63,731 nucleotides of DNA, filler included, from Kipferlia bialata (GCA_003568945.1; 7 parts of 6 records of this genome joined end to end with filler, not necessarily neighbours in it), one strand, 5' to 3'. Positions 2,495 through 63,510 are shown, counted from the first letter of the whole stretch. The notes: generated from the letters alone by a model not told the origin. A program made the numbers and translations.

Positions 2495-5400
2495 ATGCCC
2501 GGCAAAGAGGGGCAGGGGCAAAGGGATAGAGGTAGAGAGGGAAGGAGAGGGAGAGTGAAGGAAGAGCATGAGCGTGTGAAGCTGGAGGGCGGAGGGGTGA
2601 AGCAAGAAGGAGGGAGAGCAAGACAGAGGGAGAGAGACACTCATAACAGTGGGGGCAGGAGAGAGAGGGAGAGACAGACAGGGTGCAGTGCTGGCGCCTC
2701 CAGTAGCAGTGGAGATGGGGAGAGAGGGTGTAGCAGTGAGTGCGGTATCGACAACCCTCTCTCTCCCTTCGTAGACCTGCAGGAGCTGTTCCAGTTCTGC
2801 AACGAACAGTACTTCAGGGGCATGCTGAGTGCGGTCAAGGTGGAGTGGAGCAGCAAGAGGTATCATATATATATATATATATAGTATATTGTAGTTCTAC
2901 TCCTAATCATAAGAGTAAGATATGTGACAGTGTCTATACTGGTGAGGTCAAGGTGGAGTGGAGCAGCAAGAGGCATATGATGATACATTCACTATATACC
3001 ATAGATTCATTCACTCTGTATACACAAAGTCTCCAGACCAATCAATATCACTACCAGACCTCTAACTCTCTAGGTGCACTGCTAGTGCCGGGTTGTGCAT
3101 ATGTGATCCACCCATCACACCTGGGGGCCCAGGTACTGTCTCTCTCTTTCTCTCCCTCTCTCCTTTCTCTCCCTCTTCTCTCTCCTGTACATTAGCACTG
3201 ACGCTGAGTGCCACCTCTACTACACAATCACCACCACCATTTATACAGTCCTAGCAACTTGCCAGTCGTCATCATACCTAACAACAGATAGTACTATTCA
3301 CTACATACTACTAGTGTCCACTGACTCCCCTCCTTCACCGTACTTCCCAACTCTCCTCCTGACCCTATAGTCAACATCACCATCCGTATCTCTGAGCCAC
3401 TCCACAAGTACAGGCCCCAGTCAGACCTCATAGAGACACTCCTGCATGAGGTAGAGTGTACCCACCCTACCTCTCCTATTCTCCAAACTTCCTCCCCCAG
3501 ATGATCCATGCCTATCTATTCTCTCTCTCTCTCTCTCTCTCTCACACCGTACGTCTGTTCACCCCAGATGATCCATGCCTACCTGTTCACCCGCTCTCTG
3601 TCTACACCCTTATCTCTCTCTCTCCCCCTACACCCTTATCTCCAGATGATCCATGCCTACCTGTTCGTCCAGGGTGACTACAGGCACAGTCACGGGCCAA
3701 GGTATGTGTGTATCAGTAGTATAGATACTGATACTGATACTGATACTGTGTATCTATACACCCTATACAATGTACCCTTTTACACACTGACATCGACATG
3801 TTCAAGATATAGTATTCTGCATCAGATATACTGGTATCGACTCCCAGACATAGAAACATTCATTCTCTCTACTGTGTCACTCATCTCTCTCTCCCCATAT
3901 GTATACGTATATGTACATATATACATGAAAATTTATATATGTATGTGTTTACCCAAGGTTATACGCCGAGATGGACAGGGTCACTCATATCTCTCTCCCC
4001 CCATGTGTACACATATATATATGTGTGTGTATAAGTGTTTACCCAAGGTTCTATGCCGAGATGGACCGTGTCAACAGAGAGAGTGGAGGGGCCATGCCCA
4101 GCGGCACACATCACCACGACTTCGAGGAGTAAGTGCATATATGCAACATCACTTCTACCACACACGCACATTCTCACGGTCGTCGCTCTGTATATTCCAG
4201 TGTACACACTCACCCCGTCTACTCAGTAAACGGAGTGATATCTAGTATATATAGTAAATTACTCACTATGTAGGGAGGTCAATCACTACCAGAGCCACAT
4301 CTTCATGTGCCCAGGGTGCAGACACCAGTATGCACGTGCCATGAACAGGTAATGGTGCAGTGATACTATGATAGTATAGGATAGTATATATATATTATAC
4401 TATCCTACTGTATTCTCTCCTATACTGCACGGGCCATGAACAGGTGCTTGTTAATGTGACATACTATCCTACTGTATTCCATCCTATACTGTCACATACT
4501 CGAATAGTGTTCTATCCTATACTGCAATGCCATGAACGGGTACATATACACGTTGTGAAGAACAACCAAGAGAAGTACTACTATTCTATACCCTACAATA
4601 CTATACTGTCCCTGACGCATAGATGGCCCGACATGTGCCCGACCTGTCTGTGTGAGGTGGTCAAGATAGCAGAGCCCGTGCCTTCTAAGGTGCATACAGA
4701 GTCTATATACCTGGTAATTGTTGTATATACACTGAAGTTGATACGTATTGAGGTGGTCAAGACAGCAGAGCCCGTGCCTTCTAAGGTGCATATAGACTCA
4801 TGTACACTATGAGCTCTCTGTGTCAATTATCTAATCTGTGTTGCAGGGAGTTTCATTGTCAATAGAAGCTCATCTCTCACCCCAGGGACAGAAGGTGAAG
4901 GCGTATGCCACTCCCCTTCCCACTAGGGTAGGTGCTGTTATAGTATATAGAATATTCATTATACAGCATAGAGAAATACATACATAGTATTCTCTCCAAA
5001 GTTTGGAGTCCAAACTCAAAGAACTGAATACATATACATGCATATTCACATTCAAATACATAATCATCTGATATCTATCTCCCTGTATACACAGAATATC
5101 TTCTTGACCGCTCTTAACACTAGGAGCAGTCTGTACAGTCTATCTTGGTCACCCTAACACTAGGAGCAGCTGTACAAGACAGGAGTCCAGGTGCAGAGAC
5201 ACCGGCACGAGAACGACACTGCTGCAGCCAAGGCCCCCAAGACACCGAGGTTGACGCCTACTCCCCTACATACCCCCAAGTACGCTGCCAACGTGCCCTT
5301 GGTTCCAACACTGGACACAATTCCGGTTCGTAAGCCAGCTGTCAGTCCTGTCCACGTCTGGAAGGATTTTTTGAGCCCAAGGGTACAGCTTGTCCTTCGG

Positions 5401-7093
5401 CACACACAGAGGGAGAGAGAGAGGGAGAGAGAGGCGTCCCAAGCAAAGAGTGGAGACATGGGTTGGCTTTCACCTGACCCCCCGTCATACCAGTTTCCCC
5501 TAGCCCAGTACCCTCCTGTAGGCAACACAGGACCTTACCCCACGGTAGGTGGTCCCCACCATACTGTGGCTAATCCCTATGCTACCACCAACGTGTACCC
5601 AGGTGGCCTGGCAGGAGGAATACAATCTTATGGCTACCCCTATATGGCTGGGGCAGCAGGTGGGTTGGCCTGGCCAGGAATTGGAGTAGGTACTGGCTTC
5701 CCCCAGGGTACTGTGCCAGGATGCATAGGGGGGATGGGAGGCGTTGGGGAACAAGGTGCAACGGGTCTCCAGGGAACCATCGACGGGCTGCAGAACCTTC
5801 TCACACAGCTACAAGCTGTGCAAGCTGCATCTGGCATAGATACCCAACCACCACAGCCTATAGTGAACCCACCGGATACACCTGCAGCACCTTACGGGTA
5901 TAACAACTATGCAGTCCAGCCAGTGAATGCTATACGGGGAGCTGGTGGGAGGACAGTGGGAGTCGGGGGTATTGGGAGGACGGTGGGTGGAGCGAACAAG
6001 GGACCACGTGAGAGGGAGAGAGAACTAGAGAGAGAGAGAGCCAGACGGAAGCGGATACTGGCGAAGGTTCGTGATGCATCGGCAGTAGCTGCTGGGGAAG
6101 CAGAGAGACGTGCTCCTGTCCATATCCCTGCACCAGTTCCTGTGAGAGACACAACTAGACCAGCAGCCATCCAGCCTAGGGTTAGACCTGGGCCCAATTC
6201 ACATGGGGAAAGGACTAGAGGTGGTGCACCTGGGGGTGGAGACGGTGGCCGGACTGAGCAGAGAGAGAGGGGGCAGAGGCGGCCAAGGGCACGGTCTACT
6301 CCGTCCTGCGGTGAGAGGGAGAGAGAGAGGTATGCTGACATCAAGGTGGAGAAGAAGGAGGAGGTCTTCCCTAGGTACAGACCTGGGCACCCTAGGGGCA
6401 GGGCAGTATGGGGAACAAGGAGTGTCCCCATAGAGGAAGACGCTCCAGTGTTGGATTTCACGGGTGTGGCCTCACTGAGTATGAATATATATATATACTT
6501 AGTCTTTGTTCCTACACCAGTTGCAATATACTGCTTAAGATGTCAGGGTTCTAGTGTGCTAACATCAGGATCAAGCCAACAGGCAGTCAAGCAGGAGGTG
6601 AAGGCTGAGCCCATTGATGTGTTGACTGAGGTCCTAGACTTCTCAGGTACTTCTAGATACATAGTATAGTACTACAATGGAATTTCTTGAATCACAGTTT
6701 TGGCCTAGTATTCTCCTTGAGTATTATACTAGGGAGACACTTAAAGTGTAATCACTAATACGACCTACAGCTATACGACAAAAGCAATCTCCTTGTGTAG
6801 TATAGTACTGATTGCCAGAGTCTGTGACCCTCCCCACCCCCTTTGCCTCCCCGTATGCAAAACGCAATGCATGTGGGAAGAGTGGCACACGTAGCAAGAA
6901 GGCAAAGAGAGCCAGGGATCCTCAACGACCTGCTTCCACTGGCAGACAGACAGAGAGGAGAAGGGAGAGAGAGAGAGATATATCAGGCTCATTGAGGAGG
7001 AACAGACAGATGCAGACTCCTGTCAAGAGAGAGACCGACCCGAGACCTGAAGACAGAGAGAGAGAGAGAGAGCCTAAGAAGGACAGAGGTTGA
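2495..7093 (+). CDS. SPRTN: SprT-domain zinc metalloprotease (Spartan/DVC1-like DNA-protein crosslink protease), 11 exons, ~825 aa
   Basis: Hand-spliced exons 2495-2859, 3074-3132, 3371-3450, 3646-3701, 4048-4128, 4274-4348, 4623-4689, 4886-4927, 5164-6463, 6569-6646, 6819-7093 are all GT-AG and phase-consistent. They give DLQELFQFCNEQYFRGMLSAVKVEWSSKRCTASAGLC...IRISEPLHKYRPQSDLIETLLHEMIHAYLF...HSHGPRFYAEMDRVN...HHDFEEEVNHYQSHIFMCPGCRHQYARAMNRWPDMCPTC. This contains the SprT HExxH motif, the HG motif and a Zn-binding subdomain, followed by a long low-complexity tail. Confidence 0.9.
3491..3701 (+). repeat. Triple tandem copy of 3' splice site + exon start (CAG|ATGATCCATGCCTAYCTRTTC); only the third copy is a full exon
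   Basis: Copies start at 3501, 3568 and 3646. The first two end after about 21 nt in intronic CT-rich sequence. Confidence 0.95.
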
Positions 7094-9437: not shown

Positions 9438-11871
9438 CTACAGCATAGCAACATCGCCCTTAGCCTCTGGCGACTCCTTCTGCTCTACATCCTTCTCCCT
9501 CTCTCCCTCTACCCCCTTCTCACCCTTCTCTCCCTCCACTGTCTTGGTGTGTACAGAGGCCACGGAGTCCTTCTCTCCCTCTCTCTCTCCCTCCCCCTCT
9601 GTCTCCTTCTCCTCTGGCACGGTGGCCTCTCTCTCTCTCTCTCTCTCCCCCTCCCCATCTGACTCCTTGGCGACATCCTTGGCTATGTCCTTAGGGCCAT
9701 CCTTAGGGGCCTTGGAGGAACTGCTCTCGGGGTCCTGGGGGTGAGGGAGATGGTATAGGGATACCTAAAAGTAGTATACGACACTAAGAAGTCTAACTAA
9801 AGGGCGATAAATGGGTGTAAGAGAGGATGTATGTGAGAGAGAACAGAAACACTCGCTGGAGCCTCAGGGGTCATATTCAGTGATAAAGAGATGTATAGAG
9901 AGCAAGATAGCGGGACCGGGTGGGAGAGAAGACACATATCATCACATAGTATCATACCGACAGGGAGCACGGCAACTATTGAGACAATAAGGGGTGTAGA
10001 GAGAGAGAGAGGAGCAATGGTACCAGTACCTGTATCATGCCGAATGGCATTGGAGGGGGTGGGTACCCACGGCCAAAGACACGGGTGATCTCCTTGAGGG
10101 TGATCTCGGCTGGGGTTAGACTCATATAGATAGAGAAAGAGAGACTGAGGGCGAAGTATATATACATACTCATACATGGAAGGAACTCACATGCTGAGAG
10201 GGAGAGAGAAGCATACAGTGACTGAATGCAAGGCAAAATATAGATTAATATGCAGAGAGAGAGAGAGAGAGAGTACTCACATGCTGAGAGGTAGTTGTTG
10301 GAGTTCTCCTTGCTGTCTGTGCTCTCAGACTCCTCTCTGTCACCCTCTCTCTCCCTCTCCCGAGACTGTCTCTCCCTGTCGGCACGGCTGGAGGGTAAGG
10401 ACATAATATCACAGTACATATCGTTACACATATACATAGGACAGGGTCAGATAGAGAGAATATAATACATACCATATATATTACGACTTAGATTGATATA
10501 AATGCTACTCATTGATATTTGGTCAATGGATACATATTCATACACCGTACCTGAGCCTGCCTCTGGCCCACAGGGGTGAGTCGGAGGACGAGGAGCCTGG
10601 CGTGAGAGAGATATGGTATATTAAAATGTGGTAATATGTACAATATGTACATAAAGTATATGCATTCAATATATACATGGTGAGTCGGAGGACGAGGAGC
10701 CTGGGGTAATGGAAGGTATAGGTAGTTATGCTACCAGAGGGATACGGAGAGAGGCGCTACCTTCTGTGACTGGCGATCTGTTCTTGCCCTTGTTCTTCCT
10801 GTCTCTCTTGGAGAGGGACCTCCTAGAGACACGGGGGGTCTGGGGTGAGTGGCAACATGAATACCCGTTGATCGAGAGAGATAGAGAGAGAGTAGCAATA
10901 TACGAGGTGGCTGAATGACTGAGTTGCAGAATAGAGATATGAATGAATAACTATAGGACCCACCTGTCTAACGTTCTTCTGCGGACTACCCATGTCGTGA
11001 TCATCACCAGTGTTCCTGAGGGTGAGTAATGACAATATTTATAGAATACTATACGGACTGTGATATGTCTATCTATATATACATATACAGTCACCACAGA
11101 TCTTGGACGAGTATGCATAGCTGAGTGTTATTTTCCTTAAGTATACATATACCAATGTGCAGAGGAATCCCATCACCGAAGTTTAAAGTATCTTTAGAAA
11201 GAGACGTAATAATTACTTTCAATACTACTGTGTAAATGTATTAGTATACATACCTCCTGCTTCTGATCATGCGCTCTGCCTCCTTCTCCTGTCTCTTCTC
11301 ATCCCTAGGGGGTCAGAAGGAGAGAGAGAGAGGGAGCACACCACAACCAAATATATACATAAAAATGCTCATAATATAATGAACACAATTATGATATGTG
11401 TGTGTGACTGACTCACTGTACCTCAGGAGAACCTATAAGAAGGGCATTCATATATATATATATATACAATTAGCACACACTTGAGAGCCTGCAGGAAGGG
11501 TGACTGCAGTGGCTGGCCAGACACAGACTGGGCCAATGGGTGGGAGCCATCCATAAGGGCCTGGGTATTAGGTATATGCATATATATAAAGAGAGAGAGA
11601 GAGAGAGAGAGAGACTGGGCCAGGGGGTGGGACCCATCCATAAGAGCCTGGGGGTGGGGGGATACATACAATTATTTATACACATATTAGAAATGGTTTG
11701 TGGGTGACACATACTGAAGGGGGAGAGAGAGAGAGAGTAGAGTGGACAGAGAGACTGTACCTTGGCAATCTGTCTTGCATCCTCCCCTCCCTCCACTATC
11801 CCTTGGTACTCCACCCTCTGCACAGGGGTCAGGATGTACTCCTCGGGGATGAACTGGTCTGGAATAAGGGG
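9438..11871 (-). CDS. 3' portion of a multi-exon hypothetical protein (charged, low complexity), 5' truncated by contig end
   Basis: Nine phase-consistent GT-AG exons: PLIPDQFIPEEYILTPVQRVEYQGIVEGGEDARQIAK / ALMDGSHPLAQSVSGQPLQSPFLQALK / DEKRQEKEAERMIRSR / ... / EITLKEITRVFGRGYPPPPMPFGMIQ / DPESSSSKAPKDG...AKGDVAML, with TAG at 9438-9440. Confidence 0.72.
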
Positions 11872-11881
11872 CTAGAGAGAG

Positions 11882-11981
11882 NNNNNNNNNNNNNNNNNNN
11901 NNNNNNNNNNNNNNNNNNNNNNNNNTTAATTAATTAANNNNNNNNNNNNNNNNNNNNNNNNNNNNNNNNNNNNNNNNNNNN
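11882..11981. other. Synthetic contig linker (44 N + TTAATTAATTAA + 44 N)
   Basis: An identical 100-nt spacer with a six-frame stop cassette recurs six times. Sequence on either side is not physically adjacent. Confidence 0.97.
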
Positions 11982-12029: not shown

Positions 12030-12030
12030 C

Positions 12031-12161: not shown

Positions 12162-13308
12162 GGGCACAGTAGAGAGAGAGGAGAGGAGGAGGAAGGAGGT
12201 GGGTGCATATAGCGGGATCCATGAGTCACTGTCGTGTGTATACATCTGCGTCTCTTGTGGCTGGTAGTGGTGAGTATATGCGCGTGTATACAGTGCTTCT
12301 CCCCGCTCTCCTCACCCTCAGGTCAGAGTGCTCAACAGTCTGCTACACTCAGTGCCACTCAGGCCTGGATACAGGTATGGGGTGTAGGATGGATGAGTAG
12401 TGGTAGCAGTGATGTGTGTGAAGAGACGTTACTTACACGATGTAATGGACTGTCATTGACTGGTCGGTATGTATATTAGCGTCTCACTCCAGGGACGATA
12501 GGCAGAGAGACCTGGAGGAGGCCAGGGGACAGGTATGGGCATATACGCATTATTATCATTGTGTTTAGCCATCCATCGTCGATTGGCTGACCCCATACAT
12601 CCACTCACACCATGTCCATATTTACCCTCACTGATGAGTATCCCCAGGACACTGAGCTATATGCATATACATATACACATACATATATATATATATACAT
12701 ACCATCCTTAGTGACTGACCCCTAGGACACTGTGCGCAGTGTGAGGCCTCTGTCTAGAGTCAAGACACCCCAGGAGGTAGGGGGGTGTATATGCAGTAAT
12801 TATGTCATAATGAATTGTACATATTCTCATAGTATATATACGTAATGGTAGATGTGGTCAAGACACCCCAGGAGGTAGGGGGTGTATGGTGGAAAGAGAG
12901 GCTTTATCATTGGACATGTGTATATGTACATTTATTTGGTGGTTGTAATGTATATATACTACAGTCTGTGGACACATTGATGTGTTTGTCTGGAGAATTG
13001 ATAATATGTCTTGATCTACTGTTTCCGTGTGGTATGCAGTATTTTTATATCTGATTTCGTCTGACCCCCAGGTGTACAGGCGAGAGATTGGTGCATACAG
13101 GGACCAGAATGCACCACAGCACCAGGTATATATCTCTGCATACTCTCATATATGTATATTACTGTATACATATCCATCTAACCACCTGTCTCACCCCTCA
13201 GCCCCCACCCCCTAGTAGGGAGAGAGCCGCCTCGAGGGAGAGAGCGTCGTCTAGGGAGAGGGGCAGCTCTAGAGCATCCTCCAGAGAGAGTCAGAGGGTG
13301 GTAAGGTC

Positions 13309-13339
<31 letters not shown>

Positions 13340-14091
13340 CTCAGCAGGGACAATGATGGAGTGACTGGGTGGAAGACTGATAGGTATGACACACACTCTA
13401 GACTGGTGTGAGTGCCCTATAATATGAGTGTCCCGATGACCCCCCTTACCCACAGGTGCAACACTGCAGATGAGCTAGAGAGAGAGGCCCTGAGAGCAGC
13501 ATACACCCTGGCTGCCAGGCACTCTGGTATGTAATGCTCGATTATCAGTGTGTTATTATTCCCTAGAGCAGGACTTAGATATGTATATATTGATATAGAT
13601 GTATAGATGTCTCTCCAGGGTATCGCTATCTCACTCTCTGTCTTCCTGTACGTATGTCTGTATTTGTGTGTGTGTATCTATCCTCACCCCCCAAGGCAAG
13701 AGGTCTGGGTCCCACGATGCTGATGAACGCATTCTCAAGCCAAGTACACCCTCAGTGCAGGGTATATACAAGGTACGCGAGTGTATATACCATACATATG
13801 ATGGGTCGCAGTTGTTGGTGTTCGGAATATCATTCAAATCTGACCAGCAGGAGACCCCTACTCTTTCAGCGAGGGAGAGAGAGAGAGAGAGGCACAGGGA
13901 GAGAGAGAGAGAGATGAGGGTGGAGAGAGAGACCACCCAGAGACCAGTAGACGAGGTACCCGCATATGCATATAGTCTTCAAAAGAACTCATTTCCTCCC
14001 GTCCGCCTGAGTACATACATCTCACTGTCAGGTCAGAAATGGTAGGTGGACCCCAACTAGGAGTAGGGTTGGTTATGACGCCAAGAGCTAG
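12162..14091 (+). CDS. Multi-exon hypothetical R/S/E-rich protein; start codon unresolved
   Basis: About 10 phase-consistent exons: GTVEREERRRKE / VRVLNSLLHSVPLRPGYR / DDRQRDLEEARGQ / DTVRSVRPLSRVKTPQE / VYRREIGAYRDQNAPQHQ / PPPPSRERAASRE... / CNTADELEREALRAAYTLAARHS / ... / VRNGRWTPTRSRVGYDAKS, with TAG at 14089-14091. Confidence 0.65.
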
Positions 14092-15277
14092 ACTCTCAGT
14101 GGAGAGGGGGTTGAGAGACTCACTCCGGATGGGAAGGGAGCTGGGGTTTCTAGAGAGATGGACGGAGCGAGTTGGTACTTGCTTGACTCCACTACATACC
14201 CTCTAGATGTATCATCAGGTGTAATGGACTGTAGTCTGAAATGGTCCAAAGCGGACTCCTTACATAGCATACTGGTTGCATGAGCCACTCTCTCATATAT
14301 CTATATCTATATCTTCTCAACATAACCTAGTGATAAGAGCACACTTGTGTGCGTTGTGTCTTCCGTTCTACTGTGAGTATATCGAAGTCATCACAAGGAT
14401 AGTATTCCTATAATTGTGCTGTTCCATTGACAATACTGTATGTAGGTCTATTGTCTATATTTCCAATGAGAAGTGACATAACTCAGAGTGATACCCTCAC
14501 CAAGAGGGGATCATTTGGGCATGAGAGATTGTTGATACCATTCTTCGGTTGATGACTAATCACCAGTTCACCAATTGTCCTACTGCTAACAGCACAGTAA
14601 CTAAAGTGTAGCTGTCAGTATTGTACTGTGGTTCCTAGAGATCTATATTCATCGGCCAGTAGTGGGAAGCTTCGGTTCGAATGGCTACACGGCTGACTAT
14701 GCACGATGAATGAAGACACACACTGAGGCTTTTCAGTGTATTACTCGGCAACATAACATAACCCACGGATTCATATTATGAATTTCATAATCAGACGACT
14801 ATGAGATATATTGACAAGTTTGCAGGTGATCTTTGTGGGTACTAGTGTCCCTGGATCAGTCACAGCAGTCACTGCTGCAGTGTTCACCCGTTGTAGCAGC
14901 AGTAGATTGTAGTCCGATACCTATCGTGTATATAGGTGGCTATGAATTAGGGTTTTACTGAGTGAACTTCAGTTAAAGTATTCTCAGTTGAGAATAGTGT
15001 ATGCCAGACTCAAACTCGACTCGATGACTACCCTACATGTATCATATGACATATGTTGAGAACACCACGTTAATATGAACACACGATGTGCTTTGGGTAT
15101 CTCAATACCTTCACCACTGTAATGTATACGTACATGCCGATAGATGGCCTCAGATACCAACCCTGACTAAACAGAATTCACACTAGTGCTACTAACCTTG
15201 ATGTACATATACTAACCCAGTGCGAGGTATGAATGTGTATGCCCTCTCTCTTGGAGTGACCACTCAAGCATAGCAGT

Positions 15278-16774
15278 ATGGGAGGTGGGGAATTAATGTG
15301 GTACTGGTGTTGGTCATCTAGCATACACAATCTGCTAGGGCTACAGTATACCCACTTAGATTCGGTCCCTCCCATTACACACGCCCCCGCTACCCATACA
15401 CCCATATGCCTACTGACCCCAGGCAGTTCATCTAGTGAGCACAGCACACACCACGAGTCAAAGCACAAGCACAAGCATCACAAGGTGAGGGGTACTGTTG
15501 ATGGATAGTCTCTGTTTCACTCCCCTCTCTCCATTCCCATTACACTATGGGATACATGGAACAACACCCTATGGCTATGAGCTCTCTCTCTCTCTCTCTA
15601 ACTTCCTCTCTCCCCTCCACCTCACTCTCACCCTCTAGGAGAAGGAGAAGCACAAGAAGCATCACAAGGTGAGCTACTACCAGTCTCTCATCTCTTATCC
15701 CCTCTCCCCCCTCTCTCTCCCCTCTTCCCTCTACCTCCAGGGCCACAAGCACCATGCCCCTACCCCTGATGCAGGTATGGGTTACACCTCAGATGCATGT
15801 GTATACATAGTATATGTTAATGTGATGCATCTCTAGCTACTCTATTTGGACACCGCGTAGATTTGAGGGATGTTGTTTGTCATACCATTCGTCCCCATAG
15901 ACTCTGTCAGTAGGACATACTAGTGTAGACGCCCTGTATGTTGTGTCTATATATTACACACAGTATCTAGCTCTGACCCCCTAGGCATAGGCAGCCGTGA
16001 CACGCCCCAGAGTGAGATGGAGAATGAGTACGTCAACCCCATACACCGAAGCAGTAGACACTACTCATACACACATATCTCCAATGATTCATTTCTCACC
16101 ACTATCTCTTTCCACACCCCTCTCGGATACCTCACCTCAGGGCCTTCAGAGAGGCCTACCAGACTGACTCCCTAGGCAACCAGTCCAGGGCCATGGCCGA
16201 TGAGCTGCAGTCAGTGTAAGTGGTGGATATAGTGGTGTATACTCTGTGTATCTGGTGATGTCTCTCTAACCCAGTGCCATGTCTCCCATGGGACCTGCCC
16301 CCCACCCCCACCCTGCCCCAGTCACACACAGGAAGGGTGCATCAAGGCTGGTGATGGAGGAGGTATGGGCATGGGAATATGCGTCAATACCAACATCACC
16401 CTTGCATTCCTATACACTTGCATTGGAATACCCACTCACACACTACCTCACCCCCAGAATGCCTGGCGCACACCAGGTGGTAGTCAGGGAGAGGTATGGT
16501 GATGCATATATATAAATGGATAGTGTTGATACATATAGATACATATAGATACATACATAAATAGTGATAGCCAGGTGGCAGTCAGGGAGAGGTATGGGGT
16601 AGTGCCACTAATAGAGGTATATAGTACATGTCTATATATGTTTGTGTGTTGTCTCCAAGGAGGGGTACACACTCACCCTGACACCAGGACTCCTTATGAT
16701 ACATATATTTATATATAGATACATGTAATCTGACCCCCCAGGAGGTTGATGAGCTGTCACCATGTGAGATGTAG
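15278..16774 (+). CDS. Small (135 aa) His/Lys-rich protein with N-terminal myristoylation-type motif, 9 exons
   Basis: Exons 15278-15284, 15423-15484, 15639-15668, 15741-15774, 15985-16027, 16141-16215, 16275-16362, 16458-16493, 16742-16774 give MGGSSSSEHSTHHESKHKHKHHKEKEKHKKHHKGHKHHAPTPDAG...EVDELSPCEM*. All junctions are GT-AG and in phase. Confidence 0.72.
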
Positions 16775-17206
16775 GGAGGATAGTGCTAGAGAGAGGGAGT
16801 CAGAGAGAGAGAGTACGACTCTGACCTGTACGTAGAGGGCGTCAGAGTGTATGTGTGTGTGTTTGTGTGTATGTAATAGATTCATTGTGTGCTGATCGCT
16901 GCTTTGGCTCTGCAACAGGAACCTCTACATCTACTATGACATTACACCATAGCGATACAGTATATAGGTGCCATCCATTATTGTGCTACACGACTCAGTC
17001 TGACAAATTCACCATACATCCACCTATACATACACATTTATATCTAGAGTGCACCCACCCACGGGCCATACACTATCATCCAAACAACAAGTCAAACCTC
17101 TCGCCTACTCTCTTTCTCTCCCTTCTCCTCATCTCTCGTTAGTCTTTCTCTCCCTCCTTCACAGATTCTTCCGTATCTCTCTCTCTCTCTCTCTCTCCCT
17201 CCCTGT

Positions 17207-19764
17207 CTAGTAGAGCACGTCTGGCAGGTTGCTGCTGGACTTGCCGAGACCTATGGGGTCAGTACACACTCATATATATATATATACCATCTATATACCC
17301 CTGTCCACCCACCTGTGTCCTTGACCCGCTGGCTGTAGGTGGATCTCTTCCTAGGAGTCAGAGGGAGAGAGAGAGAGAGAGAGAGAGACATATGGAACAG
17401 AGTATAGCATAACACGACGTGACTACGCATACATCTACACCCCACACCCACCTAGCCTGTGAGGGTGACATGTGTCCGTTGGGAGGAGGCCGGGGCTTCC
17501 TGCCGCTGGGGCTCTCTGCCATCCTAGATGTCCTGAGGTAGGGGCTCTCACTGAACCTACCATCCGGTACAGGGGACATGGGGGGGGCTGGGGGTGAGGC
17601 ACATACTAGGGAGAGCCGAAGATGGATTAGGGAGAGAGGGGGAGAGAGAGCAAGGCACTCTCCAGAATACACAATACCTCCAGTATACACACAGTATCCC
17701 ATGTCCCTACCTCCTGTGACGCTCTCGAGTGGTCTAGGGGGTCCCTTGTGGGAGGGCATGGGCCTTCTGATGTGCTGCTTCCGCCTGGGTGACAGCATCT
17801 CTACCGCATGCACAGCCCTGATGGTAAGGGGGGGGGGGGTATGTATAGGTAAGAATACACCAACACATAGGTATAGTAATGTGTGCACCCCCACCTGACT
17901 CCCTCGAGACTGGCCACGTCCCCAGACACACAGTATGTCAGCACAGACCTGGGGGTGAATGGATAGAAGGGTGGGGGCATGTCCAACAGCAACATAATAG
18001 CCATATCATCCACTCACTCTAGCAGGTGCCCTCTGTCTGTGGCGCTGAGTGTGCTGAGGTCAACGTCCAGACCAGCACTCAGACTGGAGAGCCTGGCCAG
18101 GTGCAATGCAGACAGCCTGGGGTGGGTGTGTATACACTGCATATATACATATATATACTGATACACTATATGGTAACATAGCATCTGGGCAGACAGCCTG
18201 GGGTGGGTGCATGTACACTAGATATATACATATATATACAAATATATACATATATACACTATATGGTGACATGGCATCTGGGCAGACAGCCTGGGGTGAG
18301 TATAGATACACTGTATACATATGTACTACACATATGTAGGATGGATGGGTCAGATGGATGGTAGACAGCCTGGGGTGGGTGGGGATGAGACGGGATATAT
18401 ACACAGCCTATCTATATACTACACCCTACACCCACTATGCATTCACATACATCCACCTGGTGACGTCTGCCTCAGTATCAGTATCATTATCAGTACATAC
18501 TGCATATCATATATATCATACAATGTATACACCCAAACATACACCCACCTCGTCAGGTCATCCCGGGTGCAATCATGGCACCCCCACTGACACTGTATAT
18601 CATATATAGTACCATATGTATATATACACAGATACACACACATATATACCTTGTCAGGTCAGCCTCGGGTGCTATCATGGCACCGGCTGGGGCAGAGGCC
18701 AGAGAGGTCAGGAAGCGGTTGAGGGTCCTGAGGGGTCAGCATCAGTATCTATATATATAAGTATTTATATATTAGTATCTATCTATCTATCTATATCTAT
18801 ATCTATCTATATCTATCTATATCTATCTATATCTATCTATATATATATGGTTGAGGGTCCTGGGGTCAGCATCAATGTGAGGCATGATGCACATATCTAT
18901 GCAAACAGTGTATGCACTAGTATATGACAAGACATGTGTATATACTCATCTATCTATGTTACAGAGTAGTACATGAGTCTACACATCCACCCCACCTGTG
19001 TCTGAATGCATGATGTCCAACCTATCTCACTATATACACACCAATCAATATACACTTATGGATATATCAACTGCATCCACCCCACCTGTGTCTGAATGCC
19101 AGCATGATGCCGCGTCTGCTCTGCCAGGCACGGATGTCCAGGCACAGGAACCTGGGGGTAGGTGGGTGACTAGAATTGATGTATATATACACAACATGTA
19201 CCCCAGCCATCTCACACCCACTGACACCACTGCCCCATTGACAATGGTCTCTCTCTCTCTCTCTCTCTCACCATGTCAACCCACCTAGCGAGTCTCACGG
19301 CCACAGACACCCCTGCCTCCTTGACCCTAGTCCAGCTGTAGTCAGACACCAGCCTCAGGGCAGTGGGTACTGGGTCCTCAAGGCCAAGGCGGCCTGGGGG
19401 TGGGGGGGTGCATGTAAGGGAGGGTGTGATACACACACCAATAACACTTTCTGTCTGCACTATACATCTACAATCCATACCTGCCACCGTCCTAGCCCTG
19501 TTGATGGAGTGGCACATGCTCCAGTTGTCAAGGGCCTGGCGGGACCTGGGGGTGAGGGGTTGTGGATATATGTAGAGACAGAAATAGAGAGATACAGAGA
19601 GGAGCGGGACCTGGGATGAGTATACAGCCGTGTATATTGCATAGAGTACAGGTATGCCTCATGATCCCTGGTCCACCCCCCTCTATATCTATACTGCACT
19701 ACCTCAGCCTCTGGTCCTCCTTCTGCAGTGCCCTCAGGGCCAGTCTCAGCCTGGGGTGGGGTAG

Positions 19765-19795
<31 letters not shown>

Positions 19796-20531
19796 GTATC
19801 ATAGATACATATACCGCATGGCCAGTCTCAGCCTGGGGTGGGGTAGTATATATATATATATATATATATGTACCATAGATATATATACCCCTAGGGCAGT
19901 CTCAGCCTGAGGGGAGGTAGTATGAATTATTACACGAATAGGTTCACCCGCACCTCCTTGGCTCGAGACTGAGTGCTGTCCCCCTGACCAGCTGTCTGAG
20001 CGCAGACTGGGACTGGTCAAGGTCAGACACAGTGTCGACTAGGCCTGGGGGGTCAATATATATAGATATACACACACATAAGAATATATATATGTAATAT
20101 TGATATATGACACAGTGTCAACAAGGCCTGGGGGGTGAGTACTAAACAGAGAGAGAGAGACACAGTATACACGATATATATATCAATATGTATACATACA
20201 CAAAGAGTATATCAATATTGATATAGGACACAGTGTCAACTAGGCCTGGGGGGTGAGGGTGGGATGATATATATATATATATATGTATAAGAATACACTA
20301 TATATTAATAAAGAATGCATAACTATAGATATATGACACAGTGTCAACTAGGCCTGGGGGGTGAGGGTGGGGTATAGGTATATACATACACATATGGATT
20401 TAACCATACCCTGCACCCTCTTTCCCTGCATGCTTGTCCCCTGCATGTGTGACTGTACACTCTTCTCAGTCACCAGACCAGCCAGGGACCGGCGGTACAG
20501 CTGCATCTCGGCCAGCAGGGACTGGGGTCAA

Positions 20532-20562
<31 letters not shown>

Positions 20563-23500: not shown

Positions 23501-23860
23501 AGACTGGGGTGAGGGGATAGGATTAATGCATGTGGTATGGATATGTATATGCATATATGTATATATATGTATATGCATGACTGAGATGTACCAATGAAGG
23601 ACAGGGAGTGCTGGGGAATACAGTGACAGCAGAGTGAATATGCCGAGTGACTGTGTGCCTACATACATACTCATACACACTGATATACCCCTACCTGTGG
23701 TATGTCTGATGCCATGGACACCGCCTCATCTACTAGGTGTCTGGGGGGTGAGGGGGGGAGGGGGAGTGCTACTATATACCCATCCATCCATATACATACA
23801 CACAGCACCTGATGTCCTCCCCCAGTCTGTCTGTGTCTGTGTCACATCTCTCTCTCTCTC
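17207..23860 (-). CDS. Long coiled-coil protein, ~24 short exons, 5' truncated
   Basis: Continuous phase-consistent splice path, e.g. ERRALLAEKRVELLEKRLTEMTAVFKGRVTLATERENKLRQ, LESESQRLRDALKATQSAFVHSERALSDTNEALK, RMRAGLAQERAKRYAKNARVKSLLAEMQLYRRSLAGLV. It ends GLGKSSSNLPDVLY with TAG at 17207-17209. Confidence 0.8.
20025..20362 (-). repeat. Four tandem copies of acceptor + exon start (CCAG|GCCTWGTYGACACTGTGTC)
   Basis: Acceptors at plus-strand ~20045 (true exon), ~20128, ~20246 and ~20354, separated by differing (TA)n-rich spacers. Confidence 0.93.
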
Positions 23861-33780: not shown

Positions 33781-33815
<35 letters not shown>

Positions 33816-34631: not shown

Positions 34632-34986
34632 GGCACACAATGCGTTGGAGGAGGGGCATGGGGCGGCTAATGTCAGCTGTGTATTTATATATATAGATAG
34701 ATAGAGAGAGATAGAGAGAGAGAGAGGACTGGGCACACAATGCGCTGGAGGAGGGGCATGGGGAGGCTAAGGGTAAGCCGTGTCTAGTGTGGTCTTCATA
34801 CAATGTACTATTCTCATAAGTAATACGTACCTTGCCAAGTGCTGTGCATGCTTCACAATGTCCACCTGACTGTGCACATCACCCAGCATGGTCACACGGC
34901 AGGACTGCTTCCTAGGGTTAGGAAATACGATTATCTGTCAGAGAGAGAGAGAGAGATGGTCACACGGCAGGACTGCTTCCTGGAGT

Positions 34987-35022
<36 letters not shown>

Positions 35023-43935: not shown

Positions 43936-43979
<44 letters not shown>

Positions 43980-44088
43980 TTGTCAGACTCGACATCGGGC
44001 ATGCCATCCTAAAATGAGGGTGTAGAGAGAGAGAGAGAGAGAGATGCTTATCATACAATCAGGCATGCCATCCTGCAGTAAGGGTCTA

Positions 44089-44139
<51 letters not shown>

Positions 44140-44181
44140 GTTTAACATACAATCAGGCATGCCATCCTGAAATATGGGTGC

Positions 44182-44225
<44 letters not shown>

Positions 44226-45852: not shown

Positions 45853-45854
45853 CT

Positions 45855-45898
45855 AGGGCAAGGGCACATACAGACAGGGGGACACTGCAGGAACTATA

Positions 45899-45945: not shown

Positions 45946-46151
45946 GATGATGATGACAGGGCAAGGGCACATACAGACAGGGGGACACTGCAAGAGCTGT
46001 GATAAGGGGTGAAGATATATGTAAATATATATGTAAATATTTATGTATACATATATGTATATATAGTAGGACAGGGCAAGGGCACACACAGAGAGAGGGA
46101 CACTGCAGGAACCATGGTAAGAGAATGAGAGTATGAGAGAGAGAAAGAAGA

Positions 46152-46186
<35 letters not shown>

Positions 46187-46290
46187 AGATGCTGTTAGGG
46201 CAAGGGCACACACGGAGAGGGGGGTTGGGGGAGAGAGAGAGAGAGAGGACGGCAGTACAAGGGCACAAACCAACAGGGGGACAGAACAAG
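45855..46290. repeat. Intronic degenerate tandem array (GGGCAAGGGCACA...GGGGACACTGCA units interleaved with (GA)n/(TA)n)
   Basis: About five units at ~45856, 45959, 46074, 46198 and 46258, copying the intron 3' end just upstream of exon 45798-45852. Confidence 0.8.
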
Positions 46291-46529: not shown

Positions 46530-46548
46530 TAGTGACCCTCACCTCCAG

Positions 46549-49500
46549 GAGGTGGTAGCCCAGTCACCCCTGTGAGGGATATATACATATATCTGTATCT
46601 ATACTCATAATGCCACTAACCACCAGGCGTACCAGCAATAGTCACCCCGGTCAATGAGAGAGACATCCAGACTGACTCTGGTGTTGACTGGGTGCCTGAC
46701 CCCAGGGAGAGCACCCTGGTGCAGCGCACCCCTCCCAACTCTGGGGTATGTCAAGTCTGTTACTATATGTGAATGCTACTATCATTCATACTATATGTAT
46801 ATACACTATACCTATACATGCGTGTCATGAGCACCTCAGTACACCACACACCCAATTTTGGGGTACTTTTGTAACGTCATATTGCTATAAGTGTATACTG
46901 CTGGTACATAGACCCTCTGTATACACATGATCGTCCTTGATTGAGATACCCAGGACATACGTATACACCTAGCTATATATATATACACAGCAATGTATCT
47001 TCCTGCTAACTGGCAGACCCAAAAGCTCATCAAGAAGTACGAGACTGATCGTGTTCACGGGGAGACCCGTATCCCACTCCCTACCTCCATCGCACCCAAC
47101 AGAGACCGCATGGAGGGATCATTTGCGGTATGTCATATATAGTGTACACTATTGTATACATACTATACGATATGTTGACAGTAGTGATGAAGGGGACTGG
47201 CAGTGAGAGGGTCTCTTCCCTCCTAGTACACTATCGACAACGTATACCAACTATCTGCAGCCTCTCTCTCTCCAGCCAATTGTCGACAGTCACCTGGTTT
47301 TTACTTGATTGTGTCTTGCACTAGAGATTGTTGGGTATACGACGATAGTATAAGAGTATATCACTGTCTCCTCCCGATTGCCGACACCCAGCATCGATAT
47401 AGTATATCAAGAGTATACAGTGTATGTACATAACCGGTATTCATGACTGACAACTAGAGTGCCGTTGCAGTACACCAAGTTGCATTGTATATATGTGTGT
47501 CTTTGGTATATAATATTAATGTATACCTCACTGACACCCAGCGTGTAGCACCAGTGCCAGGCAGTTCTGTGTACGGGAACATCTACACCCCAGCAGGTAC
47601 TTCTTCTCTCTCTCTCCATATGCCCCCTACACTGATGCTGTCTTGGTATACTGCATTGACATTGACTATTAATTCACTCCTTCATACACGATGTACCCAT
47701 ACATACACACATGTAAACTATATATGGTGTGGGTAAGTACATCTGATACATGTATATATATCTATTTCAAGTAGCGGTTACGTACTCAACTCTCACTAAC
47801 TGCGCCAGCCACGCTCATCATACTCCCTATATACCGTAGTACATATGTCTATGTGTGTGCATACCTGACCCCAGCTATGATCAGGAGGACCAGGCTCGGG
47901 TCTTGCTTCAGGGCACAGATGGAGGACAGAGGTGCGGCTCGGTCTCTCTCACTACCGTATACACTATTAGTACAGTGTTATACAATGGTGCGTCTATCTA
48001 TCTCTCTATCTGTAACGACAAGACTGTGGGTACAATGGTGGTATGTGGTTGTGTCTGCTGCCATTGGTGTGTACTGGCATATGCAGTGTATGTCTTCGAA
48101 TAATACTGAGTATGTTGTTCTTTCTCTTTCTTGGATGCTCTCAGTCTCTCTCTCTCTCTTAGCGTATGAGCATATATATATATGCTATTACTGTGTACAC
48201 ATGTCTCCCCTCACTATCAGACGATGAGGGTGCATGGACCCTCCAGTTCAATATGAAGTCTATATAGTCTCTATATATAGTCTATATATACACATAAATG
48301 TAAACGGCATCTCACAACCAGACATTGAGGTTGCTGAGGGTGCAGGGTCCCTACACGACTTCGGCGCTGACTACCCCGGTGTGGATGATGATACAGAGGC
48401 TGAGGTATGTGTTGTATATGAGGTTAGAGTGAATGTATAGTAGACATTGTATACTTATGGAGTGACGTATGCCACAGAGGTGTGTATATACATACAGACA
48501 GGATGAGGATATTATGTATATATACACAGGAGGTATCTACCCCTTTGTGGTACTCAGGTATATACATGTATTCCTGCCCTACATTGCAGGATATAGTATA
48601 TGATGTTGTACCCGATGTTGTCTGACCGCAGTGGCACCGAGGGATATATATGTTTATATATATTATACATTCATAGGACATGATATAGGCTGACCCCAGT
48701 TTAACCTCCCTGACAGAGAGGACAGGGACAGTGAGGGGGACATTGAGGGGGAGAGAGAGGGGGAGAGTGACAGTGGCAGCTCTGACTTCGACTCTGATCA
48801 GGTATTGTATACACTCCTGCACAGTGTATATATACTATATGAACATATACGATGGGGACTATGATCAGCTGTACAACTCTGCTTGGTATATGTATGGTAA
48901 TGTATGTATGTGTGGGTGCTACAGTTGATGTACATGAGTCCTCCGGTAGTGGCGGTCTAGCACACTGTACTGACTCGACACATGCATACTACTCCTCATA
49001 TACACCATGTGCTCAATGACTACTATATGTGTCACCTCACTGTACCCAACGCCTGACATATGGCTACACAGCATATATCTCGTCAGGCTCTCTTTACACC
49101 CTTTACTCACCATCAAGACAAGACTGTAGTGGGGGATATATGCGTCCCATATCGTTCTATGTAAATATCTGGTGGCACTTCTGACTCCCAGGAGAAGACT
49201 ATGGTGGTTGAGGACACCGAGACTGTGATAGAGGTAGAGGAGGGAGAGAGGGCCACTGTGGTGGAGGCTGAGGTGCCAGACGACATTGTCATTGTGTCAG
49301 GGCACCACACACACCACACCAACCACACCCACCAGACTGGTGTCTCTGTGGAGGACAGTGAGGCTGAGAAGGAGGAGGGCGTTGGTGTCGATGGGGATGT
49401 GGTGTATAGTGAGGACGACTCTGAGACTGAGGAGGAGTCTGAGGCTGACACTGTGGGCCAGACAGAGGTATGTACATGTCATGTGTAGTGTGTTGCATGA

Positions 49501-62188: not shown

Positions 62189-63510
62189 GTACACACACAC
62201 ACATATATATATACATATATATACCTAGCGACAGCTCCAGTGACCGTGTGTGCAGCGTGATGCTCTGCTTGACCCACCCACTCATCTGGGCCACCCTGCC
62301 CTGCACGTCCTGGGAGGGTTAGGGGTATATACAGTATATATATACGTATTACACACATACACACATATACATACCCTGTGCAGCCTGTGCACACTCTCGA
62401 CATCTGGCTCGCCAGGGTCTCTGGTGGTATCGGTGTACCTGGGGGTCAAGAGGAGTCAAGGAGGCTCACCAACCACACAGAATGAGAGGTATAGTCAATA
62501 TACACAGAGATTGCCACATATACATACCGTCTCTTCTTCTCCTCCAGCTGGTGCAGCTGCTATATACATACACATATACATCACTATGTAAGTACACTCA
62601 TATAATAAGCTGTCATCATACAGTGTCTTCTTCTCCAGCTGGTGGAGCTACCAAACAATAAAACTGTATACTCACATCACATTCTCCTCACTAAAAATTA
62701 TATTACACTATATAGCCTCTGCGTACCGTCTCTTCTTCTCCTCCAGCTGGTGGAGCTATATATATATAATCATACATATATATCCTATTCATTATATCTC
62801 TCTATGTATATACACTATGTATAGCCTCTACGTACCGTCTCTTCTTCTCCTCCAGCTGGTGCAGCTGCTCGTCTAGCTTCTTGGTCCTGGGGTGGGTAAA
62901 GGGGTCTATCCATACAACTAGTATATACTAGTATATCTGCAGCATACATGTATACCCGTGCATACCAGCTTCGTGGTCCTGGGGTGAGGGGAGGGGTCAA
63001 TGTACACTACACATATGCCCTATCATTACACCAATACGTCAGTCCAGAGCCTATCCGCAGAATATACACAACAACATACCTCCTCTCATAGCTCTGTGCC
63101 CTTATGTCAATCTCACTCTCCAGCTCCACTATGCGCCTCTTGGCGTCCTTGATGCCTGGAGGGTTAGATATAATCTATAATCGATATTTATCAAGTGTGA
63201 GTAAATAGATATCAGAGAGATACATTCCTGACAGACTAAATATATGGTCAGAGGGATATATATATATATTGAATAGGTGTCTCTTGGCGTCCTTCAGTCT
63301 TTAGTATTACAACACTCGGGAGAGAGAGACAGCTATTGATGTCATACATGCACTTATACCTATCTCCAGCTGGTTGCACTTTGTCTATATAGACATCCAA
63401 ATATATACACATATATACATATATGTGTACTACTATACCTATCTCCAGCTGGTTGCACTTTGTCTGCATCTCTGCAAAGGTGGTGGGCTCAGACCCATAG
63501 GAGGGGATGA
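58976..63510 (-). CDS. Coiled-coil protein, 15 exons seen, 5' end beyond the window
   Basis: Phase-consistent path: TKCNQLEIGIKDAKRRIVELESEIDIRAQSYERRTKKLDEQLHQLEEKKRR...YQTIVKESDWLRTEVQRLTELNTSLAQQEH...IIKVVNECLASIKEDM...KVAERLMHEEHLFSMLSDVLK...FRGDEE, with TGA at 58976-58978. Confidence 0.82.
60077..60578 (-). repeat. Exon ~60249-60317 flanked by three extra acceptor/exon-start copies and two extra exon-end/donor copies
   Basis: Plus-strand CCCTCTTCTCAG / CTCAGTGGCAACCTGGGGG copies at ~60393, 60480 and 60561. TACCTCCAGGTCT copies at ~60076 and 60167. Confidence 0.88.

Follow-up and report, generated by a model that had tools for sequence, protein, structure and literature searches.

Partial copies of exon ends lie in over a third of the examined Kipferlia bialata introns and differ from the working exons mainly at silent sites

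Minisatellites that cross an exon-intron boundary are described, in the available part of one source, for human F7 IVS7 (37 bp), CBS IVS13, 6-16, LMNB2 (100 bp) and PDGF (81 bp) (PMC1557585). Like the copies reported here, they repeat the donor site and the exon end downstream, and F7, LMNB2 and PDGF are spliced at the first donor; the units of LMNB2 and PDGF are similar in size to the steps found in Kipferlia bialata. On the same partial account these are single loci in which whole units are repeated, whereas K. bialata has 61 such junctions in 64 kb, with 1-4 copies each, at donors as well as at acceptors; their intron parts do not align, and their exon parts show coding-type divergence. An earlier note on this DNA knew of no description of such copies at this density; single cases (F7, CBS, LMNB2, PDGF) had been published.

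The human polymorphism CBS c.844_845ins68 duplicates 52 nt of intron end and 16 nt of exon start and leaves the message intact, as splicing removes one copy (PMC7490669, available part). Like the K. bialata acceptor copies, it is a one-step duplication in which the downstream acceptor is used. As presented there, it is one polymorphism, ~96% identical including the intron, whereas K. bialata has dozens of copies in which similarity does not extend beyond the exon part and splice motif. In the Rogers model of intron gain, as given in the available text of Hellsten et al. 2011 (PMC3265369), tandem genomic duplication of an exon-internal AG/GT produces a new intron. There too, splicing takes the outer copies of the duplicated signals and removes the duplicated segment, but the model makes new introns, whereas in K. 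bialata existing junctions are duplicated and old introns grow. Rogers-type gain was rejected for our introns: at least 7 repeated nt at the intron ends occur in 3 of 131, against 1.6 expected.

Tandem exon duplication, with its mutually exclusive exons, places exon copies beside the parent exon, and their divergence is silent-biased. It differs from the present case: K. bialata copies hold at most 72% of an exon, never both splice sites, and contain stops and frameshifts. Gao and Lynch reportedly treated internal gene duplication in 2009, and Reed and Maniatis are said to have treated duplicated splice sites in 1986.

K. bialata is a free-living relative of Giardia. The window, that is, the whole stretch of DNA analysed, consists of seven contigs (63,731 nt with filler), and all counts refer to it. 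Repeats were initially searched with 12-mer seeds at distances of up to 600 nt; copies with an exon part of at least 10 nt and a score of at least 30 were then sought in 131 modelled introns (262 junctions). This stricter set holds 83 copies, with repeated differences counted once, and is separate from a looser first-pass set of 86 rows, 4 of which were weak, unanchored and dropped. The 83 copies, with exon parts of 11-67 nt, lie in 49 of the 131 introns and at 61 of the 262 junctions; 41 are on the acceptor side. As a background, junctions of other genes gave 0.03% matches per test (3930 trials). The repeat unit is the exon end together with its splice site, since GT/GC/AG is intact and in register in 79 of 83 copies. 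Arrays hold 1-4 copies per junction, with up to five versions of one junction.

Positions listed in the earlier note were recovered within 1-10 nt by the 12-mer seeds and the stricter scans. Its strict side rule, with donor copies downstream and acceptor copies upstream, also stands: in 262 tests of each kind, the exon half facing the intron matched it 56 times and the far half never. The rule calls for no junction-seeking process, because any tandem duplication across one junction leaves the same layout. At most 72% of an exon is copied (median 42%; 0 of 58 families above 80%), an acceptor-like site was found upstream of 0 of 34 donor copies, and no copy has both splice sites. This lack of duplications covering both sites is consistent with purging. 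In 12,447 nt of long exons we found 1 weak repeat, with a 96-nt offset; selection or mechanism could each explain this.

Five further acceptor copies have only 5-9 exact exon nt (18197, 18290, 18369, 21620 and 21565), and the 12-mer search shows more copies beyond the modelled genes, so that an estimate of 80-100 copies was fair. Their presence across all seven contigs was overstated: from contig 1 to 7 the 83 copies are distributed 12/16/4/1/30/0/20. Likewise, "genome-wide" is an extrapolation from seven contigs, two of them nearly copy-free. Copy load differs strongly among genes, with 1/20, 0/13 and 2/14 introns against 15/25 and 10/14 (p = 4e-6).

A SprT/Spartan protease gene, KIPB_005134, contributes its first 9 exons (2495..6405, plus strand), and its model equals the annotated protein P0001 at 689 of 689 modelled residues. 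Seven copies occupy 6 of its 8 introns: donor copies at 2942-2976 (working donor 2859), 4426-4445 and 4749-4791, and acceptor copies at 3497-3521, 3564-3588, 3946-3983 and 5115-5137. A further donor copy, noted earlier near 4525, is visible yet scores under the cut-off. The intron 3451..3645 divides the HExxH zinc motif (HE / MIH), and its acceptor copies 3501 and 3568 precede the working one at 3646. Acceptor 3501, if used, leads to a stop at residue 227; acceptor 3568 puts 26 extra codons inside the motif. No relatives of this gene were found in metagenome contigs.

The second annotated gene, D (KIPB_005139; 26 exons, 17200..23740, minus strand), matches protein P0003 at 644 of 644 residues and has 14 scored copies in 10 of 25 introns. 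These include an acceptor trio at 20109-20136, 20227-20254 and 20335-20362 (sites 20127/20245/20353 against the working 20044), an acceptor pair at 19814-19844 and 19889-19918, and donor copies at 18547, 18990, 19210, 21681, 21902, 23071 and 23343. Short acceptor copies lie at 18197/18290/18369, against 18116, and at 21565/21620.

As two of three homolog searches had no match, our own open-frame models stand for genes B, C, E, F, G, H, K and L. Model K has 4 stops near its 3' end, L2 has one stop and the frame of L3 is uncertain; these stretches are copy-free. Gene E (34831..45893, minus strand, 26 exons) carries 30 copies in 15 of 25 introns, and its outer sites give 1530 codons without a stop. 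Its 576-nt intron (43922..44497) has a donor copy at 44374-44420 and four acceptor copies at 43976-44020, 44058-44084, 44152-44178 and 44236-44262 (sites 44008/44072/44166/44250 against 43921). The outer three share a breakpoint and one silent change, and are thus re-duplications of one copy. The 766-nt intron (42694..43459) contains donor copies at 43211-43249 and 43317-43351 and acceptor copies at 42763-42813, 42867-42922 and 42989-43017, two of them with a 3-nt in-frame insertion; the 408-nt intron (44556..44963) contains donor copies at 44640-44659, 44745-44782 and 44851-44884 (sites 44636/44746/44855 against 44964). Upstream of the model and outside the count of 83, the first modelled exon has a copy series at 45958, 46073 and 46197 (45955..46223).

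The coiled-coil gene G (58975..63510, minus strand, 15 exons) has 20 copies in 10 of 14 introns. Its 397-nt intron (62439..62835) holds donor copies at 62722-62757, 62626-62649 (truncated) and 62522-62561, with sites 62726/62618/62527 against 62836, and its 193-nt intron (62887..63079) an acceptor copy at 62967-62986. Gene H (24772..26317, minus strand, 3 modelled exons) has one 806-nt intron with four copies: donor at 25733-25770 and 25845-25908, acceptor at 25238-25309 and 25355-25386. Gene B (9438..11858, minus strand, 9 exons) has a donor copy at 10185-10204 and acceptor copies at 10679-10707 and 11606-11652. In gene F, on the minus strand (1462..1725), exon 1536-1462 has acceptor copies at 1589-1626 and 1678-1725, the latter having lost its AG, and an older donor-side copy lies at 1368-1407. 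Three plus-strand regions are poor in copies or free of them. Gene C (12322..16763) has only donor copies 12857-12880 and 16571-16597, in 2 of 14 modelled introns; the Kelch-repeat gene K (28494..34409) has one donor copy, 28663-28708, among 20 introns; the contig-6 gene or genes (46627..57980) have 0 copies in 13 modelled introns. The 12-mer search found no exon-like seeded repeat pair in the unmodelled part of contig 6 (47597-49191).

The most informative feature of the copies, absent from the first reading and new here, is a 4.6-fold excess of silent differences. Copy and working exon differ at 55 of 336 four-fold sites and at 42 of 1186 zero-fold sites, a ratio of 4.62. The ceiling for a copy made from its own exon is 2 (p = 3e-5; family bootstrap 2.95-7.4); other trims give 4.4-5.8. 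In 450 simulations of one lineage, passed through alignment and trimming, the medians were 1.9-2.0 and the maximum 3.6. The excess persists for each exon base, reaches 5.2 outside CpG-prone sites and 5.3 for transversions alone, which rules out CpG or base composition as its source. The ratio stays at 4.0-5.1 with any one of six genes left out; gene A alone (1/14 vs 2/83) and gene G alone (5/76 vs 8/277) have low ratios. Altogether 88 of 143 differences in the stricter set are silent; the looser first pass gave a weaker signal, with 114 of 217 silent against 39-45% expected (p = 0.017 to 3e-5). Differences between copies lean silent too (17/91 vs 19/309, in pairs that are not independent). In the 67-nt acceptor copy of gene H, 11 nucleotide differences fall in 9 codons, and 7 of the 9 codon changes are silent. 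This silent bias makes other alleles of the gene the likely source of the copies. The copies have since decayed and are now non-coding: we count 2 stops, 7 frameshift against 2 in-frame indels, and 4 lost splice dinucleotides.

Three other patterns were tried and rejected. Copies do not age from the inside outwards (nearest copies 51/263 and 32/924, farther ones 10/79 and 12/264), their divergence does not grow towards the breakpoint but is flat to 30 nt, and second-order selection via copy-to-exon conversion would give, by argument only, a steady-state ratio of about 1.

The main competitor is plain tandem duplication on the same chromatid, by slippage or from the sister, with neutral decay, as F7 and CBS are read: silent drift would occur in the working exon, microsatellite introns would scramble fast and selection would remove both-site duplications. 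It covers the geometry, step size and decay without any extra assumption. It also fits the alignable spacers found in 9 of 81 steps, the shared breakpoints of copies 44058/44152/44236, and the fact that no second allele is seen in this strain, either in the 1-kb comparison with X1 and X2 described below or among protein clusters, where both annotated proteins (KIPB_005134, KIPB_005139) are single-member 90% clusters. However, it caps the silent ratio at 2, and the observed 4.6 was reached in 0 of 450 simulations; the working exon would have to mutate ~3.6x faster than a copy 100 nt away. Base composition offers no rescue, as silent differences have no clear GC direction (52 vs 38; non-silent ones are similar, 44 vs 28). 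The tandem duplication of junctions invoked in the earlier note leaves both the silent excess and the unalignable spacers unexplained, and we regard it as unlikely, though by no means negligible.

The step between copies has a median of 99 nt (IQR 89-111). Introns gain ~102 nt per copy, and copy steps make up 8434 of 25760 nt of modelled intron DNA, a third. Identity is about 0.9 in the exon part; past the donor it drops to background after about 7-10 nt, and beyond 10-20 nt of intron it is near background. Only 5 of 59 spacers align with their expected partner globally, and 9 of 81 locally (1.6 expected): spacers are indeed far more diverged than exon parts, as first observed by eye. Even among the nearest copies with an identical exon part (n = 17), the spacer z exceeds 2 in only 2. 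Flanks align a little better between two copies than between copy and exon (4/25 against 6/78, p = 0.07), a difference so small that fast intron turnover alone could explain unalignable spacers. Breakpoints adjoin dinucleotide runs in 24% of cases against a background of 9%, and first spacers are shorter than 42 nt in 1 of 61 cases, against 48% for uniform breakpoints.

Another possible origin is the insertion of new low-complexity filler, made by Pol theta-type synthesis or brought in by a mobile element; the accompanying target-site duplication would include a splice site by chance. In its favour, spacers do not align with their partners, adjoin dinucleotide runs and are AT-richer than copy-free short introns (0.72 vs 0.60), for which our best explanation gives no reason; PolQ is listed for K. 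bialata in the available part of PMC8516963. Against it, 59 spacers compared in 1699 pairs do not group into a sequence family (median best score 20, against 16 in copy-free introns, with top matches of low complexity), show no general signal of terminal inverted repeats (mean 3.3 vs 2.9 of 12) and have ordinary intron lengths. Copies identical at birth would, moreover, give no silent excess above 2. This origin seems quite improbable.

Three lines of evidence agree with the earlier proposal that the first donor and last acceptor are used: RNA at two introns, homology, and the open frames obtained via the outer sites. One RNA contig (X2) shows this choice at 2 of 2 informative introns. One joint skips 397 nt, so that intron 62439..62835 is excised whole from its first donor; the other skips 193 nt, with the last acceptor chosen at 62887..63079, even though the acceptor copy 62967-62986 outscores the working site (11.5 vs 9.0). 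A third joint (skip 204) is not counted: it landed on an identical copy, its true exon lying outside the stretch. Human SPRTN aligns co-linearly across the copy-bearing SprT introns, and homology requires the last acceptor, 3646. Inner sites are about as strong as the working one in 40 of 78 cases, and 12 are stronger. Strong decoys are passed over at donors and acceptors alike, and no 5'-to-3' first-come rule accounts for the choice of acceptor; exon definition, in which sites are paired across the exon, likely lets the spliceosome pick the outer sites.

The copies could also be functional, as alternative splice sites or mini-exons under protein-level selection. The silent bias, the 79 of 83 copies that keep GT/GC/AG, the strength of the inner sites and one possible copy turned exon (15639-15668) speak for this. 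Yet use of an inner site is in frame in 25 of 79 cases, the chance level, and yields an in-frame, stop-free message in 8; stops and a majority of frameshifting indels have accumulated, the donor copies have no upstream acceptor-like site, and the RNA contig skips the copies at both introns, although rare isoforms would be invisible in it. We therefore rate a function as slightly less probable still than filler.

Physically, the arrays look like real DNA and not concatenated haplotypes, given the bridging contigs of run X1 and the short identical stretches shared with the working junction. In a 1-kb test stretch (62360-63420), 4 of 6 copy junctions are spanned without a mismatch by independently assembled X1 contigs that extend at least 31 nt to either side; at the remaining two, the reach is 30 nt. 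The contigs over gene G cover 62532-62751, 62723-62860 and 62840-63384, with a hole at 62396-62503, and one of 220 nt reads copy-spacer-copy-spacer-copy. X1 also contains 0.99 of 240 sampled words from 2700-5200, a region with seven or eight copies; for the SprT region, DNA support is this word share and splice support is homology. No RNA record was listed for 2700-5200, which says nothing about expression. The identical nt shared with the working junction number fewer than 55 in all 83 copies and fewer than 31 in 64 of them. Among the X1 and X2 pieces listed for 62360-63420 at 80% likeness, no second allele or other letters were found, in contigs that drop variants; nor was a DNA joint indicating a copy-number variant seen in X1 over ~1 kb, in contigs of one strain. 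An assembly artefact that concatenated diverged haplotypes or strains, with a spacing near the 100-nt read length, is the least probable reading of all: it would yield just this silent bias and spacer divergence, the published assembly was built with SPAdes from short reads of a diploid (PMC5874029), X1 may be the source reads, copy 35778-35829 lies across a 76-N gap and no single record spans the whole test stretch, but a spacer-to-mid-exon junction exists in neither haplotype and is bridged by X1 all the same, and the five-segment contig, the word share, the short identities, the up to five versions of a junction and the single haplotype over exons in the 1-kb test all stand against it.

We return to other alleles as the source. 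On present evidence, it is somewhat more probable than not that the copies, spliced-out duplications of ~100 nt that each span a single splice junction, had their exon parts templated from a diverged allele in aborted homologous repair, likely followed by end joining. On this reading, silent sites would differ between alleles by some 10-15%, and the microsatellite-rich introns of the alleles would have become unalignable, leaving exons of 50-100 nt as the only islands of homology. After a break in or near an intron, one exon would invade the other allele, and synthesis would cross the intron of that allele and enter the next exon by 10-65 nt; the new strand would fail to re-anneal and be joined to the other broken end. 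Selection would retain only those products whose single spare site is no closer than about 65 nt to the working one. In a variant with the same signature, a plain duplication would later have its exon part refreshed by exon-limited conversion from other alleles.

The repair enzymes of the lineage have been surveyed. According to the available part of PMC8516963, Rad51A is absent from every fornicate examined and Dmc1 paralogs are present, Ku-type end joining is missing in metamonads, and the supplement lists K. bialata gene models for Dmc1, PolQ and XPF. Dmc1 stabilises mismatched joints (PMC6719624, available part). In Drosophila, SDSA is commonly aborted and then completed by Pol theta end joining, with partial templated synthesis before joining as in the proposed chemistry; that case is gap repair from a sister chromatid in a reporter, and the available text does not describe it as a source of allele-derived junction copies (PMC2895639). 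As no donor allele is seen in the strain, past heterozygosity has to be assumed. Some copies may derive from the sister chromatid instead, given that 24 of 83 have no difference at all (16.8 expected) and that the 7 first steps with alignable spacers lean silent in the same way (5/27 vs 2/98).

There is about an even chance that a standing process, active across the genome, makes the introns of K. bialata grow: when very diverged alleles take part in repair, some 100 nt of the other allele, with exon end, splice site and intron, would be left behind in tandem. Copy steps may be a main reason why this genome is large for a fornicate, and intron growth by copies bears on the published reading of K. 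bialata introns as simply ancestral. For annotation, copies also mislead gene predictors, one of which turned some into false mini-exons. The lineage retains only 87 of 174 studied spliceosomal proteins, according to the available part of PMC6679479. With near-equal or stronger decoys on the intron side, exon definition could be tested at thousands of natural sites; if the process is real, these sites would amount to a natural library of tests of splice-site competition and would show exon definition at work in a protist that has short introns and a reduced spliceosome. Should other alleles be the source of the copies, the copies would document exchange between diverged homologs in a lineage that has neither Rad51A nor Ku, and would allow past diversity to be estimated from a single strain. 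Tens of thousands of introns would then preserve past alleles like fossils, and one largely homozygous genome would suffice to read them.

When every junction was compared by alignment with the intron beside it, 83 copies of exon ends with their splice sites emerged, 42 on the donor and 41 on the acceptor side. They occupy 49 of the 131 modelled introns of the window, the null rate per test being 0.03%. The intron is matched by the facing half of the exon in 56/262 tests and by the far half in 0/262. Run here within the window, the comparison of exon ends with flanking introns proposed in the earlier note thus confirms its exon-end echoes with strict sides: the copies are a real feature. Their exon part measures 11-67 nt, and the splice dinucleotide is intact in 79 of 83. 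Successive versions of a junction lie a median step of 99 nt apart (IQR 89-111); introns lengthen by 102 nt per copy, and steps constitute 33% of modelled intron DNA. Copy density is unequal among genes (p=4e-6). The claimed presence on all seven contigs did not hold: contig 4 has one copy, and junction-versus-intron alignment of modelled introns found none on contig 6. There, long introns at 46746-49191 (+ strand) contain, by eye, several internal acceptor-like motifs and no detectable exon copy; these may be old copies that have decayed, or exons missed by the models. Intron-only tandem repeats are rare, occurring at 36705-36779 and 4397-4526 with 26-nt and about 64-nt offsets.

The underlying 13 gene pieces come from a self-trained exon predictor followed by manual curation, with the first donor and last acceptor used throughout in every gene model. 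The first exon of gene A, a SprT/Spartan protease gene, has a 100% match to a single protein, Kipferlia bialata KIPB_005134, and an exon on contig 2 corresponds to KIPB_005139 (gene D). Both models equal the annotated proteins, at 689/689 and 644/644 modelled residues, respectively, and copy-rich gene E spans 26 exons and 1530 stop-free codons. The SprT domain aligns co-linearly with human SPRTN (6mdw, E=7e-30) across copy-bearing introns, including the one interrupting the HExxH motif. A short coding-like region at 8212-8711 (+) separates the SprT gene from gene B. The 5.2-kb exon 50588-55826 is open except for a single in-frame TAG at 53381-53383 (+), which may mean read-through, a broken gene or two genes. 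CpG occurs at 0.34 of expectation in introns and coding DNA alike across all modelled genes, which hints at CpG methylation, past or present, in a metamonad.

The K. bialata assembly is described as short-read SPAdes, with 124,912 introns and a probably diploid nucleus (PMC5874029); its main text contains none of "duplicat", "tandem", "allele" or "heterozyg". Identical nucleotides common to a copy and its working junction never reach 55 and number fewer than 31 in 64/83 cases. A de Bruijn assembler would therefore need reads across the new junction to loop through them. Contigs of a DNA run (X1) contain 0.99 of 240 words sampled from 2700-5200. Over 62360-63420 they have no differing letters; 4/6 new junctions are bridged, with 31 nt or more to either side, and the other two reach 30; one contig traverses three successive copies. 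The tandem copies of the earlier note are thereby supported, but no single X1 record covers the whole stretch and X1 may be the source reads. Given these two points and support that comes from assembled contigs, an assembly artefact keeps a very small probability, set against the bridged junctions and limited identity. The sole internal N gap (35699-35774) separates acceptor copy 35778-35829 from its exon, which makes this one tandem pair tentative.

A copy derived from its own exon is free to change at every site, and that exon changes at silent ones only. Under this one-lineage pattern, the frequency of differences at 4-fold sites can therefore be no more than double that at 0-fold sites; simulation gave median ratios of 1.9-2.0, with a maximum of 3.6 in 450 runs. 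The observed differences, 55/336 at 4-fold versus 42/1186 at 0-fold sites, yield a ratio of 4.62 (p=3e-5), for which bootstrapping over 61 families gives 2.95-7.4. Among 143 unique differences, 88 are silent and 87 fall at third positions. The excess persists without CpG-prone sites, with transversions only and with any one of six genes left out. A looser first pass with untrimmed alignment ends gave a weaker signal (114/217 silent), and genes A and G taken singly have low ratios on small counts. Within the window the excess is statistically firm. The copies are now dead, their decay including 2 stops and 7 frameshifts. Since the excess surpasses the ceiling of 2 although the copies are dead, much of the copy-exon divergence dates from a time when both versions were coding. 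Exon-part identity is about 0.9, dropping to background within ~10 nt of the donor and fading over 10-20 nt at the acceptor side. Spacers, the intron sequence between versions, are alignable in 9/81, in agreement with the silent-site signal.

The earlier note inferred a genome-wide process that tandemly duplicates splice junctions. The layout is no sign of targeting, because any duplication crossing one junction leaves the same one. The largest share of an exon copied is 72%, and none of the copies carries both splice sites of an exon. An acceptor-like site lies upstream of the donor copy in 0/34; such sites are also rare in copy-free introns (1/50). Spacers below 42 nt number 1/61 versus 48% expected. 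Selection against spare sites near the working one fits the missing short spacers and two-site products; breaks close to the intron's far end would fit equally well. Spacers of 59 copy families are AT-richer (0.72) than copy-free short introns (0.60).

For the origin of the copies, we lean towards repair between alleles, a testable proposal. Exons would be the sole homology islands, and a broken end would invade via one of them, be extended through the intron of the other allele into part of the next exon, and then be end-joined, not re-annealed. Two diverged alleles joined out of register would leave two functional exon-end versions side by side, with unrelated-looking introns. Assuming ~0.03 neutral change since capture, we estimate that the alleles would have been ~0.10-0.15 apart at silent sites. 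Conversion from other alleles at a later stage, limited to exons, would give an identical signature and is counted as a variant of this proposal. According to PMC8516963, fornicates have Dmc1 paralogs but no Rad51A, metamonads lack Ku, and Dmc1, PolQ and XPF models are tabulated for K. bialata. Dmc1 is reported to tolerate mismatches (PMC6719624), and closure of aborted SDSA by Pol theta is described as common in flies (PMC2895639). Breakpoints adjoin dinucleotide runs in 24%, versus a background of 9%; some arrays are plain re-duplications. The main weakness of the allele-repair reading is the lack of a second allele in this strain: none was found in X1 or RNA-run (X2) contigs over 62360-63420, or in protein matches for genes A and D.

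One spliced X2 contig lacks a 397-nt intron whose removal starts at the first donor and skips three copies, of which two have GT and one outscores the working site. It also lacks a 193-nt intron, for which the last acceptor is used and a copy that scores higher is skipped. The anticipated choice of first donor and last acceptor among decoys is thus seen at 2/2 informative introns of one RNA contig, where rare isoforms would not show. Inner-site use would be in frame in 25/79 cases and stop-free in 8. First-come scanning, demonstrated for F7 donors (PMC1557585), would account for donor choice, not acceptor choice; across-exon pairing of sites would account for both. In the predictor weights, acceptors of the whole window have a branch-like motif just ~7-10 nt ahead of the AG; a C-rich run, not a long pyrimidine tract, comes after the motif.

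Human junction-spanning repeats are described as single cases in F7, CBS IVS13, 6-16, LMNB2 and PDGF (PMC1557585) and in CBS 844ins68 (PMC7490669). K. bialata copies work the same way; unlike the human repeats, they lack whole-unit similarity. Introns can also arise by duplication (PMC3265369). A 67-nt intron at 32655-32721 (+) resembles this, its last 8 nt repeating the upstream exon end; as a class, such introns are not above chance (2 observed versus 0.6 expected at a repeat of at least 8 nt). Neighbouring exons at 15423-15484 and 15639-15668 (+) have 17 nt in common across their donors, and each codes for a KHHK-type end; a donor copy may have gained an acceptor here and turned into a real exon. 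The copy density and the skipped decoys are direct observations. A literature search, with most subscription journals outside its scope, found no description of such density, no report of the pattern in K. bialata and no allele signature for junction copies. Single junction duplications were already known; the silent excess in the copies is the new signal.
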